Source: Arcobacter sp. (GTDB taxonomy: Bacteria; Campylobacterota; Campylobacteria; Campylobacterales; Arcobacteraceae). From it: a stretch of DNA of 20,637 nt. Numbering within the stretch: the stretch's first letter is position 1; each line of letters opens with the position of its first letter. Below, in pieces: positions 1 to 20,637 of this stretch. The DNA is taken from NCBI GenBank assembly GCA_965662175.1, contig CBFIGT010000032.1, positions 1-20,637 of the forward strand, given 5' to 3'. Made by a program: the position numbers.

Positions 1-3000
1 TCATCTTCACTATCAACACCACCAAATGCATGAACATAAGTGTCGCTTGGAGTTGGGAAATCTTCAACTTGTTGTGCAACAGTTGACCATATTGCTATAA
101 GAATGAAAAATACAACTGAAGGAAGAAGTATTTTTTTTAAAAGCTCTTGTCTCATTTTTTACCTTTTATTTTAGCTTGAGTGATTACTCATGTTAATACT
201 TGGACTTTATAAGAAGTAGGAAGGGTAGGTCCAAGTATTAAAATCAATAATCAAACAAAGTGGCAAGACCACTTCGTTTGATATGATTATTATTTAGTTA
301 CATATTTTGGATCAGCACAACCTGCTGGTCCATAATGACACTCATATTTTGGTTGAGCAGTTGTAACTTTCCAGTTATTAACTTTCATTAATTCTTCTTT
401 TGATACAAGTGAGTTTTGAACTTTAAAGTCAAAGATATAATCAACAGCTTTGTTTGGATCCCAAACTTTACCATCTAAGAATTTATTATACTCATCAACA
501 CCATCTTTTTTCCAAGCACTTGGAGGTAATTTATAATCAACTTCTTTTGCAACTTCAGCAAAAAGATCAGGTCTATATACTTTTTCAATAAGTGCTTTCA
601 TATCAACAGGTTTATCAAGTTGTCCCCATCTATACATTTGAGTAACAAACCACATTCCATGTGAATAGAATGGATATGATGCATAGTTATTTGCAAATAC
701 GTTAAACATTGGATTTGCTGAATCTACACCTTTATTATAAAGGAAAGTTCCGCTCATTGATTTTCTTAAAACATTTTTCGGAGCTTTAACATAATTGTTT
801 TGTGCTAAGTAACCAATAGCTTCTTCTCTATTTTCCCAAGATGAATCAAGCCATTTTTGAGCTTTTATAACAGCTCTCATAACTGCTTTTGTTGTTTCTG
901 GATTTTTTTCAACAAAATCTGCACGTGCTTGTAATACTTTTTCAGGATTATTATTCCAAATATCATAATTTGTAACTAAAGCTGAACCAGCACCTTTAAG
1001 TACAATTCTTGAATTCCAAGGCTCACCAACACAATACCCTTCTATATTTCCAGCAATTAAGTTTGATGGCATTGTTGGTGGTGGGAAAGGTTTAATTGTA
1101 CAATCTTCATCTGGCTTAATACCACTTGCTGCCATCCAATATCTTAACTCATAGTTATGAGTTGAAACTGGGTGTACCATACCAAAGTTAAGTGGTGCAT
1201 AGTTTGAACCCTCTTTAGTTCTTTTTGCATCAATATACTTTTTTAAAGATTCAGCAGAAACAGGTCTTTCGTCTTTATTTAAACCATATTTTTCCATCTC
1301 TTCAATAATTTTATTACCATATGTGATTGCGTTTCCATTAAAATCTAATGATAATAAAGCTTGTAAATGTGCATCACCATTGATACCAAGTGTTGCAGCA
1401 ATTGGCATACCAGCTAGTGCGTGAGAAAAATCATATTCACCAGAAATTACTTTTTGTTGAATACCTGGCCATCCACCACCTTCTTTTGCAACGTGAACAT
1501 CAAGACCTTCAGCCTCAAAGAAACCTTTTTCTTTTGCAATTACTAATGGAGCACAATCAGTTAATGCAATGAAACCAATTTTTAACTTTGTCTTTTCTGG
1601 AGCTGCTAATAAAGATCCTCGGGGCAAGCCCTTTCACGCTTAACGCGTAAAACTTTTAGCCATCTTGACGATGATGCTAAAAGCGAGGTATTCAAATCAC
1701 ATATTCATATTTAACTGTCCTTGATATATCTTATTATATGTTTTCCCTTGATTCTTTACATATTTTCTTATTATTTCTTCATTTGCATATTGTCCTACTG
1801 TATTCCCATAAAACCCACTTGTCCACAACGAACCTCCCCACAACTCTTTTTTTATCTCTGGGTGTCTCTTGAATATCTCTCTTGCTGTTATACTTTTTAT
1901 TATTGTTACTATTTTTGTCAGACTTAATATTGGTACACTTTGTACTAGAAAATGTACATGATCTTCATCATTCCCTATTTCTATAAAATTTATCTCATAT
2001 CTGCAGCTTATCTCTTCACATATTTCTTTTAATGTGACATCTACTATTTCATCAAATACTTTTTTTCTATATTTTGCTGGAAATACCAAGTGGTATAAAA
2101 GAAGTGTTTTATTATGGCTTTTATATATATGTTCACTTTTCATGAATTCATTATATCTTTTTTCGACCCAAGGGTCGGGGTATTAACCCTTCCTTAGAAT
2201 AAAGTTGAAGCAACAACTGATAATCCTAAACCAATTTTTAATACCTGTTTTAACATTTACTTTCCTTAAGTTTATTTTTCAAATCGATAAAAGTATTATA
2301 ACAAGCATAATTCAAAAAGTATACACTCCAATTGTATATTTTTTATACAATTACAACTTATTTTTACATTAATTTATTTTTTTAAAAACTGCATAAATCT
2401 ATTTAAATAGGGAAAGATTCCCTGATATAGCTATATAATGAATATTCTTATTTAAAAGAATAAAAATATTAGTGAATGTAATTTTTAAAAAAATGTATAT
2501 TTTTTATACATTTTTTTAAAAAATTACTGTTTTTTTAATATATAATCATAAATACATTATATAAAGGAAAAAAATGGCAGGACTAAAAGACCTAAAAGGT
2601 CAAGGACACACAGCTACTCTATTTATGGCATTCTTATATTTCGATATGAGTTTTATGGTTTGGACTATGCTAGGACCACTAAGTACGGAAATCACTGAAG
2701 CATTAGCTTTAGGTGGACATATTATGACAGCAGGAGAAAAAGCTACACTATTATCTCTTCCTATTTTATCAGGTGCAATTTTAAGAGTTGTACTAGGTTT
2801 TGGTGTTGATAAAATTGGTGCAAAAATGACAGCATTAATTTCTCAAGCAATTGTTATTGCAGCTTTACTAACTGCATATTTACAAGGTAACGAGATTACT
2901 TATAATCAATTACTTGTTGTTGCATTAGGTCTTGGTTTTGCTGGAGCTTCATTTGCAGTTGCACTTCCACAAGCTGGTCAATGGTATCCACCAAAACTTC

Positions 3001-18000: not shown

Positions 18001-20637
18001 GGATGTAATGGTATTTGTAAAGGTGATATTGTAAATGCGATTAAAGATAAAGATTTAAAATCTCTAAGTGATGTAAAATCATGTACAAAAGCTGGAGCTT
18101 CTTGTGGTTCTTGTATTGGATTAGTTGAGCAAATTTTAGTAAATACTTTAGGTGATGAGTATGATAGCGGACCTGAGGGTATTTGTGCTTGTACAGATAA
18201 AGGTCATGGTGAAATTAAAAAAGCTATTGATGAGGGTGATTTTACAACAGTTTATGAAGTATTTAACAAACTTGATTGGAAGACAGAAGATGGTTGTGTT
18301 AAATGTAGACCTGCTATTAATTACTATTTATTAGTTAAATACAATGATGATAAATATAAAAATGATAAGCGTTCTGCTCTTGTAAATGATAGAGTATTTG
18401 CAAATATCCAAAAAGATGGTACTTACTCTGTAGTTCCTAGGATTTGGGGTGGATTAACATCGCCTCAAGAGTTAAAAGATATTGCCAATATTGCAGTTAA
18501 ATATGATGTTCCAACTGTAAAATTTACAGGTGGTCAAAGACTTGATATGTTAGGTGTTAAAAAAGAGCAACTAGAGCCTATGTGGAAAGATTTAAATGAT
18601 GCTGGTTTTGTATCAGGTCAAGCTTATGCAAAAGGTTTAAGAACAGTTAAAACATGTGTTGGTAACCAATGGTGTAGATTTGGAACGCAAGACTCTATGG
18701 CTATGGGTGTAACTTTAGAAAAACTAACATGGGGTTCATGGACACCACATAAGTTTAAAATAGCTGTTTCAGGTTGTCCTAGAAATTGTGCGGAAGCTAC
18801 TATTAAAGACCTTGGGGTTATTGGAGTTGATTCAGGTTGGGAGATACATATTGCTGGAAATGGTGGTATAAAAGTTAGGGTAACTGATTTACTTTGTAAA
18901 GTAGAGACTGATGAAGAGCTAATTGAGTAAACAAAAGCCTTTAAGCAGTTATATAGGGAAGATGCATATTATTTAGAAAGAACAGCTCATTGGGTTGAAA
19001 GAGTAGGACTTCAATATGTAAAAGATGAATTATTAAATAAAGAAAAAGTGTTCTTTTGGGCAAGAAGATTTGAAGAGTCACAAAAACATGCACAAATTGA
19101 CCCTTGGGCTAAAGCTATTAAAGATGGATTTACAAAAGAGTTTAGTCCAATAGTTATAAATCCAGAAGAATCACACAGCTTTGAAGCTAAGGAGAATATA
19201 TAAATGAAAACATGGATAGCTGCAATAAATATAAATGAAATCCCAAATATGGGTTCAAGAGTTTTATACTACAAAGAAGAAGAGATAGCCATATTTAAAA
19301 TAAAAAATGGTTCAATTCATGCTATTAGCAATTTATGTCCACACAAAAAAGGTAAACTAAGTGAGGGATTAGTACATGAAGAGTTTGTAACTTGCCCTTT
19401 ACATAACTGGGATATTGATTTAAATACAGGTGAAGCAAAAGGTGAAAATTGTGATTGTAGTACAACTTATGAAACTATGATTAAAGAAGATTTAGTTTAT
19501 ATAAAACTATAAGTTATTATAAATTTAGACATTATAAGATAGAATTAACAATTAATAGTTATTTTTAGGATTATAATGTTTAAGTCTTTGGCCATGTTAA
19601 AAGAGTTTAAAACTATTTTTATAGTTTTTACACTTTTTATTTCTACTTTTTTTATATTTTTAATTTATAACAAAAATAAACAAATCGAAGATAATTTACT
19701 TGTTCTTCAAAATGCTTATGATGTTCAGTATAAAATTATTTATGATAGCTTAAAAAGATTATCTCAAAACACTTTTTATGGAATAATCAACAAACCCCAA
19801 ATTTTTGACAATTTAAAAACTATTTCAGATGAATCTAGAGTAAAACTTCATGCAAGTTTTATTTCAGACTATAATCGACTTTTAGAGTATAACTTCAATC
19901 AAATACATTTTCATACAAAAGATAATTTTAGCTTTTTAAGAATGCATAAATCAGAGATTTATGGTGATGATTTAAGCACTATTAGACAGAGTGTTGTAAG
20001 AGCAAATAGAGAGTTAAAACCTATTGAGGGTTTTGAAATAGGAAGATTTATAAATGGCTTTAGATTTGTTTATCCTATTTTTGATGAAAACCTATTTCAT
20101 TTAGGAAGTGTAGAGGTTTCAGCATCTTCAGAAGCTTTTGAATTAAATTATGAAAAAGATTTTGTTTCAGATTTACATTTTTTACTAAGAAAAGATATAA
20201 GTAAAAAGAGAATGTATGATAAACCATATAATGAATTAATAACAAGTTTTGAAAACGACAACTACTTATTTAATCAAAATGGAAAAAGTGAACTCTATCA
20301 TTTCAAAAATCAAGATATTTATACTAAAAAAGATAAAATATATATCAATAAGATGATGAATGAGGGTAAAGATTTTATAATGTATAAAAACAACTCTGAT
20401 CATCATACAACTATTTATTATAAAGCAATTCCAGATGTAAGTGGTGTAAATAACGCAGCTTATCTAGTAATCTACACAAACTCAGAGTATCTAAAGCTAT
20501 TAAGTAAAAACTATACTATTGCAAATATACTTTTACTTATGATAATAATAGTTTTTATATTTCTTATGCATAATAAATATGAAGAGATTAATAAAATTAA
20601 ACAACAAGAAAAAATATTTAATCAACAATCAAAACTA

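Follow-up and report, generated by a model that had tools for sequence, protein, structure and literature searches.

The window analyzed here is a whole stretch of 20,637 nucleotides from an Arcobacter sp. (contig CBFIGT010000032.1), and it carries an assimilatory nitrate/nitrite locus in which each of two anion transporter genes is directly followed by a gene for a protein joining a PP2C phosphatase to a Hanks-type kinase (fusion 1 and fusion 2, also referred to as kinase 1 and kinase 2). The features of the locus are as follows.

2494..2510, operator palindrome TGTAT-N7-ATACA preceding the MFS-kinase 1 unit
2574..3854, plus strand, MFS nitrate transporter of the NasA/NarK family (MFS_1), 426 aa, 12 helices
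3804..3830, plus strand, tail motif K411-x-R-W-R-T416-T417-W-G419 of this transporter, with candidate phospho-acceptors T416 (3819-3821) and T417 (3822-3824)
3873..5498, plus strand, fusion 1 (NasA-linked subfamily), 541 aa, TTG start, 18-nt spacer after the MFS gene
5500..5516, operator with one mismatch, between fusion 1 and the nitrate reductase gene
5586..7598, plus strand, NarB/NasC-type assimilatory nitrate reductase (profile matches)
7699-9294, plus strand, DmsB-DmsC-like fusion (profile matches), with an operator at 7619-7635
9291-11603, plus strand, second molybdopterin oxidoreductase (profile matches)
11670-12356, minus strand, OmpR-type response regulator, divergent from FNT
to 13818, minus strand, Tll0287-domain histidine kinase, divergent from FNT, its true start lying upstream of the listed 13749
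13931..13947, operator in the region from which FNT and the histidine kinase are divergently transcribed
14032..14865, plus strand, formate/nitrite-family (FNT) channel, 277 aa (PF01226, 222 bits)
14871..14898, plus strand, hairpin with a perfect 12-bp stem between FNT and kinase 2 (-16.5 kcal/mol, z -4.1)
14917..16626, plus strand, fusion 2 (FNT-linked subfamily), 569 aa, 51-nt spacer after FNT
16659..16675, operator between fusion 2 and nirBD
from 16741, plus strand, nirB, interrupted in frame by a TAA (18928-18930), homology continuing to 19197
19204-19512, plus strand, nirD

The reading frames and spacers that an earlier survey of the genome had given for the MFS gene, fusion 1, FNT and fusion 2 were confirmed on the sequence. 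The end given for nirB needs correction, as homology extends beyond the in-frame stop. The nrtA gene is interrupted by an IS200-family element.

Exact copies of TGTAT-N7-ATACA occur five times in the window, against 0.03 expected by chance, and elsewhere in the genome such sites are found upstream of two amt genes, urtA, nifA and nifE. This nitrogen-regulon operator fronts each transporter unit and each reductase unit and neither kinase gene, and because one copy sits between fusion 1 and the nitrate reductase gene, the latter has a control site of its own. The same anatomy is seen in relatives, where an operator lies at most 160 nt upstream of MFS (25/33), FNT (17/17) and nirB (11/16), as against 2/37 for kinase 1 and 2/17 for kinase 2. 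A Sigma-70 promoter scan gave no excess of matches (87 vs 101 by chance).

Pfam analysis of fusion 1 identified PP2C_2 (residues 19-187), SpoIIE (33-207) and Pkinase (315-470) domains, the PP2C part extending over about 6-225, the Hanks kinase over about 250-500 and the tail anchor over 524-540. Fusion 2 possesses PP2C_2 (20-200) and Pkinase (292-518) domains, followed by a hydrophobic helix at residues 552-568 as its tail anchor. The two proteins, which are the only copies of the fusion in the genome, share 29% identity across 576 columns (E 1e-57), and the survey's finding of two paralogs with PP2C and Hanks kinase motifs at this level of identity, each ending in a single hydrophobic helix, was borne out by Pfam, the alignment and the helix positions.

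Catalytic residues of fusion 1 are D40, D121, D178, D214, K277, E296, D369, N374, D390, E413 and R486. Both fusions have the five metal-binding aspartates of PP2C (motif 1 D, DG, GDxR, DG, D[DN]), each kept in at least 254 of 259 homologues, as well as the kinase beta-3 Lys, alpha-C Glu, catalytic Asp and Asn, DFG Asp, APE Glu and subdomain XI Arg, each kept in 255-259 of the 259. The GxGxxG nucleotide loop is missing, LIQNDRTW and LSATSRSH standing in its place in the window fusions, with an invariant Arg in this non-canonical region throughout the FNT-linked clade. The catalytic loop is also non-RD, reading HGD in fusion 1 and HQD in fusion 2 (HQDLRPEN); HRD occurs in 24/65 NasA-linked and 5/126 FNT-linked homologues. 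On account of these two loops the survey had considered the activity of the kinases uncertain. Both peculiarities were confirmed, but the worry is eased by 12 catalytic positions that are jointly intact in all but 9 of the 259 homologues, which would favor activity; several losses together occur in only four, all in one clade without a transporter neighbor. The PP2C domain is modeled as a beta-sandwich (pLDDT 88) which matched tPphA, PppA and PstP at target TM 0.73-0.86, with tPphA as the best structural match. A C-terminal hydrophobic helix is found in 253/259 homologues with a median of 2 residues beyond it, and the window fusions, with ~2 residues after the anchor, have no extracellular PASTA domains and no sensor domain. 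Judged from the sequences, both domains retain their catalytic residues and the helix anchors the enzyme with almost nothing outside the cell.

The family itself is already annotated. Homologues at 71% (fusion 1) and 73% (fusion 2) are both named bifunctional protein-serine/threonine kinase/phosphatase, as are most of 37 plasmid records matching at least 80% of the query, and by similarity both window proteins belong under this NCBI name, having PP2C and kinase in one chain and full-length similarity. Against the NCBIfam equivalogs, they scored 97 and 161 bits vs 450 (Stk1/PknB PASTA-kinase) and 116 and 109 vs 230 (Stp1).

Genes for fusion-type kinases were present in 50 of 151 genomes in an Arcobacteraceae-family sample and in 100 of 351 surveyed Pseudomonadota genomes. 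Within the family sample, 37 of the 38 genomes with kinase 1 also have the MFS transporter and all 19 with kinase 2 have FNT, while both kinases occur together in only 7 of the 151. In Pseudomonadota an FNT, NasA or NarK transporter lies at most one gene away in 97 of 110 fetched places, and none adjoins in eight; in four of these eight the catalytic residues are all intact, the gene being located behind amt, glgC, a LysR gene or cobA. A metagenome scan with fusion 1 returned 8 loci only.

These counts also bear on the possibility that the fusions act on the reductases (NarB, NirBD), on cyanase or on a nitrogen regulator, their position reflecting operon history. NirB is indeed present in 19/19 kinase 2 and 33/38 kinase 1 genomes, nirB or narB often directly follows the kinase genes, and all 12 cyanases of the family sample lie between FNT and kinase 2. 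However, six family genomes have NirB and neither kinase (in four of these an ABC-type NrtA is encoded beside narB-nirB, and in a fifth beside nirB), MFS and kinase 1 persist in three genomes where a NirA-type reductase replaces NirB, and neither cynS nor nirBD was present in 32 of 77 FNT-kinase loci (in fetched DNA with many short contigs). Cyanase is missing from 7 of the 19 kinase 2 genomes, including this one, two partner-specific kinases would be superfluous for a single set of reductases, and the tail anchor is near-universal. We regard a reductase, cyanase or regulator target as quite improbable.

In the kinase tree the NasA-linked and FNT-linked clades each cover two phyla (SH-aLRT 100), and the three partner labels require two changes, which is the minimum. 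By this phylogeny the fusions are two old partner-specific subfamilies, and a recent local duplication of the fusion gene is ruled out. Matching trees and co-occurrence are partly to be expected, since neighboring genes are inherited together, and this counts in favor of the kinase having some unrelated function and being carried along as a passenger in a mobile cassette of two genes, as does one clade of homologues that has relocated to a PPase-PFK context. That clade, however, shows losses of catalytic residues in its phosphatase and kinase domains alike, and the pairing of kinase and transporter is retained across no fewer than three gene arrangements (tandem, divergent and convergent). The proposal of the survey that there is one switch per transporter draws support from four independent comparisons, namely gene neighborhood, co-occurrence among genomes, the grouping of kinases by partner in the tree and the placement of operators. 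The kinase is optional, as complete nas clusters without it hold close homologues of both transporters.

Comparison of transporters with and without a kinase singled out the tail of the MFS protein. The top 10 structural matches of the transporter are NarK-type entries (best 4u4w, 4u4t and 4iu8), and it scored 228 bits against TIGR00886, below the cut-off of 312. The RWRTTWG motif lies after the last helix (390-409), in a region where pLDDT falls below 50 (415-426). T416 occurs in 64/69 of the kinase-linked rows and 1/14 of the kinase-free ones, ranking first of 119 conserved columns, and T417 in 69/69 vs 5/14; G419 and G406 track the kinase as well. Kinase-free transporters have Ala, Arg, Lys or Gly and no acidic residue at 416, and the threonines are exchanged for non-acceptors while the flanking W and R remain. 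In an out-of-sample plasmid set, Thr-Thr was found in 3/3 transporters with a kinase and 0/8 without. Independent contrasts (n=5) gave four for the association, none against and one with no change (p 0.125, five being too few to reach 0.05). One row first classed as kinase-free (L317) had kept RWRTTWG, and a divergent kinase gene was then identified; another (L281) keeps Thr-Thr although there is no kinase within ~20 kb on either side. T416 and T417 are put forward here as candidate phospho-acceptors whose retention tracks the kinase, and RWRTTWG as a candidate site is new to this analysis. The threonines have been lost in four separate kinase-free lineages, which argues against the tail motif being a drifted structural feature, as the passenger explanation would have it, and with the arrangements described above this makes that explanation hardly credible. 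Two other positions were discarded: T222, where S/T frequency was 0.86 vs 0.07 in the first set and 1/3 with vs 3/8 without kinase out of sample, and D219, present in all 11 plasmid transporters once aligned. No sequence motif common to the three partner transporter types was found.

NasH of Paracoccus denitrificans is a nitrite channel. In a P. denitrificans nas cluster the gene at the nasH position, flanked by nirD and the nitrate reductase gene, encodes a channel with 63% identity to the window FNT; this cluster differs in having no kinase, and its channel has a Lys at position 11. Against the NirC equivalog the window FNT scored 60 bits (cut-off 293). T11 (14062-14064) might be a phosphorylation site, but it is kept in 4/9 kinase-free FNT channels. 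In a more distant kinase-free group this position is mostly Glu, which would fit a sign opposite to closure by phosphorylation. T259 and T263 of the FNT tail were rejected as kinase-specific sites, as they persist in kinase-free channels. The survey had described this protein as a nitrite channel; its FNT membership stands, but nitrite alone is too narrow a label because cyanase lies between FNT and kinase in 12/19 family members, and the channel may also carry cyanate. A module for cyanate only was rejected given the seven genomes without cyanase and NirB in all 19, and cyanate is retained as a second substrate only. The hairpin of the window occupies the position where many relatives carry cynS. 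No account of the linkage of cyanase, FNT and kinase was found in the openly searchable literature.

A further explanation is that the transporter is the sensor and not the substrate, its tail docking the fusion and reporting nitrate or nitrite flux, a signal that the enzyme would hand on to another target such as the neighboring response regulator, PII or a reductase. The fusions have no sensor domain, retention of G419 and G406 alongside the kinase would suit a docking surface, and a histidine kinase-response regulator pair is divergent from FNT in the family loci examined. The genome also has two full PII genes, and the phosphatase domain finds its best structural match in tPphA, a PII phosphatase. 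Yet the best-tracking residues include two threonines exchanged for non-acceptors beside unchanged W and R, the two-component pair is missing from most FNT-kinase loci outside the family, and no third gene was found to travel with the transporter-kinase pairs in the neighborhoods compared. This explanation is considered unlikely.

The reading that we favor, and judge to be reasonably probable, is that the two fusions are kinase/phosphatase switches, each complete in itself, tethered to the membrane and serving the anion transporter whose gene directly precedes it. Transporter and fusion would be expressed from one nitrogen-regulated two-gene transcript, and the anchor would keep the enzyme on the cytoplasmic side of the membrane. 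Kinase 1 would phosphorylate one or both threonines (T416, T417) of the flexible tail motif RWRTTWG, with the PP2C domain reversing this, and kinase 2 would act likewise on the nitrite/cyanate channel, possibly at T11 of the N-terminal helix. As the fusions lack a sensor domain, the input would have to be cytoplasmic nitrogen status (e.g., ammonium, glutamine or 2-oxoglutarate) or else the conformation of the transporter itself. Given the rest of this explanation, it is likely that phosphorylation closes uptake, because the residues at 416 in kinase-free transporters include none that is acidic.

Comparable control is known in eukaryotes. In plants, the Thr101 switch of NRT1.1/NPF6.3 is set by the CIPK23 kinase and the ABI2 PP2C, and NRT2.1 is phosphorylated at its C-terminus; in yeast, Npr1 acts on Ynt1. 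The likeness proposed here is that the state of a nitrate transporter depends on a cytoplasmic Thr/Ser acted on by a PP2C and a Ser/Thr kinase, but the eukaryotic enzymes are separate and soluble whereas the window encodes, beside each transporter, one membrane-anchored polypeptide that would be dedicated to it. The bacterial pairs PknB-PstP, Stk1-Stp1 and PpkA-PppA share both folds with the fusions (best sequence/structure matches Stk1/PknB and tPphA/PppA/PstP), but are two genes each in place of a single chain. Kinases of the PknB/Stk1/PpkA type have an RD catalytic loop, a Gly-rich loop and a sensor outside the cell. No solved chain spanning both PP2C and kinase domains was among the structure matches listed. 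The C-terminal regulatory domain of NrtC in cyanobacterial ABC nitrate transporters, and GlnK acting on AmtB, give fast, non-covalent post-translational shut-off, and resemble the proposed switch as dedicated partners shutting off nitrogen uptake; family members with only an ABC (NrtA type) transporter have no fusion kinase.

Probable relatives have been recorded in Pseudomonas. One of them, PA1782, lies in the nas operon of P. aeruginosa. It is described as one of three Ser/Thr kinases (PMC8560001). In Pseudomonas sp. UW4 the cluster nasST-nasA-ppkB-nasDEC-cobA has ppkB directly behind nasA, like fusion 1, to which it is likened by gene position and description (Duan et al., 2013, PMC3596284). 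In that text, ppkB is followed by phosphorylation of plant and yeast nitrate transporters, citing CIPK8 and Npr1, and the plant analogy, which the survey had offered as new, is therefore not wholly so. Excerpts of these two papers give no function, substrate or phosphatase domain for ppkB/PA1782, and the window adds two subfamilies side by side and a candidate site. The P. putida transporter PP_2092 has a fitness of -2.6 on nitrate (10.1101/2021.12.09.472016), with no mention of the kinase in the portions of that source available; PP_2091 and PP_2092 are absent from the accessible text and supplements of the P. putida RB-TnSeq paper, and the accessible part of preprint 10.1101/072470 holds nothing relevant to fusion kinases. 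No functional study of PA1782 or PP_2091 was found, though one may exist in subscription journals, which lay outside the search, and the openly searchable literature yielded no phosphorylation or ammonium-inhibition study on the fusion family.

To our knowledge, the minutes-scale ammonium shut-off of nitrate uptake in proteobacteria is unexplained at the level of the transporter. Tentatively, and at somewhat less than even confidence, widespread tail-anchored single-chain switches, with one subfamily per transporter fold (NasA MFS, NarK MFS, FNT and perhaps Amt) gating uptake by reversibly phosphorylating a defined cytoplasmic threonine (in NasA, within RWRTTWG), could be this missing shut-off, independent of CIPK23/ABI2. 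The locus represents a natural experiment with two switches and two transporters, and the comparison singles out T416/T417. If the proposal is true, transporter phosphorylation of the plant style would extend to bacteria in a one-protein form, with implications for the nitrogen cycle in seas, in soils and in wastewater.

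The survey's reading was that each fusion of a PP2C phosphatase, a Hanks-type kinase and a tail anchor is a post-translational switch dedicated to the transporter encoded before it. All open reading frames lie where it had placed them, and Pfam locates the PP2C and Pkinase domains at residues 19–207 and 315–470 of fusion 1 and 20–200 and 292–518 of fusion 2. The proteins are, as described there, 29% identical along their whole length, and one hydrophobic helix terminates each. The features of the locus are:

290–2255, − strand: nrtA, split at about codon 20 by an IS200/IS605-family element
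1697–2143: tnpA of the IS200/IS605 family, within nrtA
2574–3854, + strand: NasA-type MFS transporter
3873–5498, + strand: fusion 1 (541 aa), with kinase 1
7699–11603: DmsB-DmsC-like fusion and second NasC-like molybdoenzyme, with their own nitrogen operator
11670–13818, − strand: Tll0287-domain histidine kinase and OmpR-type regulator, divergent from FNT
14032–14865, + strand: FNT channel
14917–16626, + strand: fusion 2 (569 aa), with kinase 2
18928–18930: in-frame TAA stop in nirB

The two fusions are the sole copies in the genome (2.6 Mb, 94% complete; the window is the beginning of contig C32). Modelled with AlphaFold2 (pLDDT 88), fusion 1 has a PP2C sandwich, then a kinase domain, and a helix at its end (518–540); its structural matches (tPphA, PppA, PstP, PknB, Stk1) are each single-domain; among the matches listed for fusion 2, none held both domains in one solved sequence. 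Both fusions retain all five PP2C aspartates and all seven kinase residues examined, the Gly-rich loops being non-canonical and the catalytic loops non-RD. Across 259 distinct full-length homologues, drawn from every locus retrieved, the same 12 residues are intact in all but nine, one of which is a row truncated at its start and four of which deviate at the APE Glu only. Several losses, affecting both domains, were found in only four rows of a single clade (L238–L241), whose genes sit between pyrophosphatase and phosphofructokinase genes without an adjoining transporter. These are candidate pseudo-enzymes with a new job and, because multiple losses are confined to this transporter-less clade, catalysis appears to be conserved wherever a transporter partner exists.

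The kinase tree splits by transporter partner and not by host. Fusion 1 groups with proteobacterial genes in a NasA-linked clade and fusion 2 in an FNT-linked clade (FastTree support 1.0 and 0.96), while NarK-linked sequences form a grade. With 60 rows, SH-aLRT was 100 for both clades and the three partner labels required the minimum of two changes; this run warned of a long-branch join within the NasA clade, which left the partner split unaffected. Since the kinases group by partner, we read fusions 1 and 2 as old subfamilies meeting in one locus, and both co-locate in several proteobacterial genomes too. Hitch-hiking of the kinase gene beside a transporter is a poor fit and highly improbable. 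In the FNT-linked clade, 125 of 126 sequences carry Arg two positions past the catalytic Asp (HQDLRPEN, window 16093–16116 in fusion 2), a position occupied by Lys in the other clades, and the nucleotide loop of this clade contains an invariant Arg.

Among 151 Arcobacteraceae genomes (the family sample), the type 1 kinase was found in 38, the MFS transporter in 38 and both in 37, the exceptions being one kinase at a contig end and one MFS fragment. The type 2 kinase was present in 19, FNT in 20 and both in 19, and the two types occur together in only 7 of the 151. No p-value is attached to these counts because the genomes are kin and not independent. As NirB is present in all 19 family genomes with kinase 2, nitrite is the likelier substrate of FNT, with cyanate likely second; each of the sample's 12 cyanases is flanked by FNT and kinase 2, and no cyanase was found in this window's genome. 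NirB occurs in 51 of the 151 genomes, six of them without either kinase, and four of these six carry narB-nirB with an ABC-type NrtA. In three others MFS and kinase 1 persist and NirB is replaced by a NirA-type enzyme. Among the 80 best relatives of fusion 2, FNT is in the locus in 77, cyanase in 31 and nirB or nirD in 20; within the DNA covered (many contigs being short), neither cyanase nor nirB/nirD accompanies 32 of the 77 FNT-kinase loci. That the fusions act instead on reductases or regulators fits poorly and is improbable.

An even sample of 351 Pseudomonadota genomes, with up to three candidates scored per genome, gave kinase/phosphatase matches in 100 genomes at at least 119 places, of which 110 were examined (9 partial places being omitted). 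An FNT, NasA-type or NarK-type transporter lies at most one gene away in 97: directly upstream on the same strand in 81, adjacent in another orientation in 9, and with one gene between in 7. In the stretches examined none was found at the other 13, comprising four contig ends, one transporter 3.6 kb off and eight true orphans. A NarK-clade member follows an ammonium transporter gene (L219:355–3849), and a porin gene (alginate-export-family or other) is often next to the nitrate transporter and in some cases separates it from the kinase (L218, L272, L347).

Kinase-linked NasA proteins end in KxRWRTTWG, past the last helix; the motif is of low confidence in the structure model, as expected of a flexible tail. 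From MFS topology, NarK being the best structural match of the window protein, it follows that this tail is predicted to face the cytoplasm. We compared 69 linked rows (about 40 close kin, the window protein entered twice) with 14 lacking a kinase in their cluster, as judged from flanks of 3–10 kb and, for some, a homologue search of the 351-genome sample; L280 (contig end), L233 and L288 (other subfamilies) were excluded. Among the 119 columns with at least 90% conservation in the linked rows, the best separator is T416, the first threonine of RWRTTWG (64/69 linked against 1/14 kinase-free), followed by G419, G406 and T417 (the last 69/69 against 5/14). Four of the five linked rows lacking T416 have WTRTW. 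L317, initially classed as kinase-free, retained the motif, and a divergent kinase gene was then found there; L281 is a counter-case: the motif is retained there, yet no kinase was found up to about 20 kb away. Five independent contrasts on a tail-excluded tree gave four in agreement, none opposed and one unchanged when WTRTW counted as retained (p 0.125), and three, none and two under a strict Thr-Thr rule (p 0.25). Out of sample, 11 of 13 plasmid NasA genes were scored (two near-duplicates skipped): RWRTTWG was kept in 3/3 with a kinase and Thr-Thr in 0/8 without, status being judged from the plasmids alone and six of the eight being sphingomonad or other alphaproteobacterial kin. The main rival, though an unlikely one, is a docking role for the tail, with the transporter acting as sensor.

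For FNT, 122 linked and 9 unlinked close homologues were compared. Tail threonines persist in both sets alike, and T11 is the only conserved Ser/Thr often lost without a kinase (Ser/Thr in 98% of linked and 4/9 unlinked rows); with E8 and V14 of the N-terminal helix it makes up three of the four best-separating columns. T11 is a weak lead as a candidate phospho-site. A kinase-free FNT group (L297–L310, about 43% identity, mostly nirBD operons) has Glu there in 12/14 rows, possibly a built-in phospho-mimic. The window channel is 63% identical to that at the nasH position of a Paracoccus denitrificans nas cluster that has no kinase.

The palindrome TGTAT-N7-ATACA has five exact sites in the window against 0.03 expected by chance, and one more with a single mismatch at 5500. 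Sites lie before nrtA, MFS, narB, the DmsBC-like gene, the FNT/histidine-kinase divergent region and nirB, and before neither kinase. In family loci the upstream 160 nt contain a site at 25/33 MFS genes, 17/17 FNT, 11/16 nirB, 2/37 kinase 1 and 2/17 kinase 2 genes. Beyond the window, 15 ORFs follow sites in this genome: nitrogen genes account for five (two amt, urtA, nifA, nifE), four more had matches (a TorF porin, groEL, a phosphatase, an AraC regulator), and the remaining six had no match at 1e-30. Transporter and switch would thereby form two-gene nitrogen-regulated units, and the reductases would be controlled from sites of their own. The spacer between FNT and kinase 2 contains a 12-bp hairpin that could, as a guess, raise the level of channel message relative to that of the kinase. 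A 20-pair inverted repeat (7604–7650) encloses the operator at 7619, and the spacer behind fusion 1 (5495–5590) holds a long A+U hairpin (z −2.9).

The Tll0287 kinase/OmpR pair is divergent from FNT across family FNT-kinase loci and shares the FNT operator region; at the expected place the histidine kinase start codon is not ATG, GTG or TTG. The DmsB-DmsC-like and NasC-like pair is found repeatedly in nas clusters of the family, at times right behind kinase 1 in place of narB, and may be a quinol-fed nitrate reductase. The element separates roughly the first 20 codons of nrtA, which are upstream of it and encode most of the signal peptide, from the remainder (290–1606), which is 94% identical to a relative. 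Nearly all family nirB homologues have reading frames that stay open for about 820 aa or longer and, because three near-matching public contigs have a sense codon at the stop, this stop is private to the strain or assembly, either a mutation in the strain or a mistake in assembly. The pathway in this genome may be impaired, which leaves the comparative argument intact.

The partner-split subfamilies, co-occurrence, operator anatomy and candidate tail residues together make a transporter-dedicated switch the best-supported interpretation, and each fusion probably phosphorylates and dephosphorylates its own transporter. Because residues replacing T416 in kinase-free transporters are neutral or basic, the comparison suggests that unphosphorylated MFS is the open form, and a kinase null mutant would in that case show normal growth on nitrate. 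The gene adjoining PP_2092 in Pseudomonas putida is presumably a homologue of the fusions. The accessible portion of a preprint on that species (10.1101/2021.12.09.472016) reports a defect for the transporter PP_2092 and does not contain the word "kinase", which is compatible with normal growth of the null without amounting to support.

Homologues are annotated as bifunctional protein-serine/threonine kinase/phosphatase. The available text of Duan et al. (2013; PMC3596284) names ppkB behind nasA and in the next sentence cites plant and yeast transporter phosphorylation, while that of PMC8560001 lists PA1782 with no function given. No functional study of the family was found in the openly searchable literature, the scope being outside subscription journals. 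The window newly contributes the test across two subfamilies, the layout of the operators and the residues proposed as candidates: to a family already annotated, whose role has long been hinted at, a specific falsifiable target is now added.
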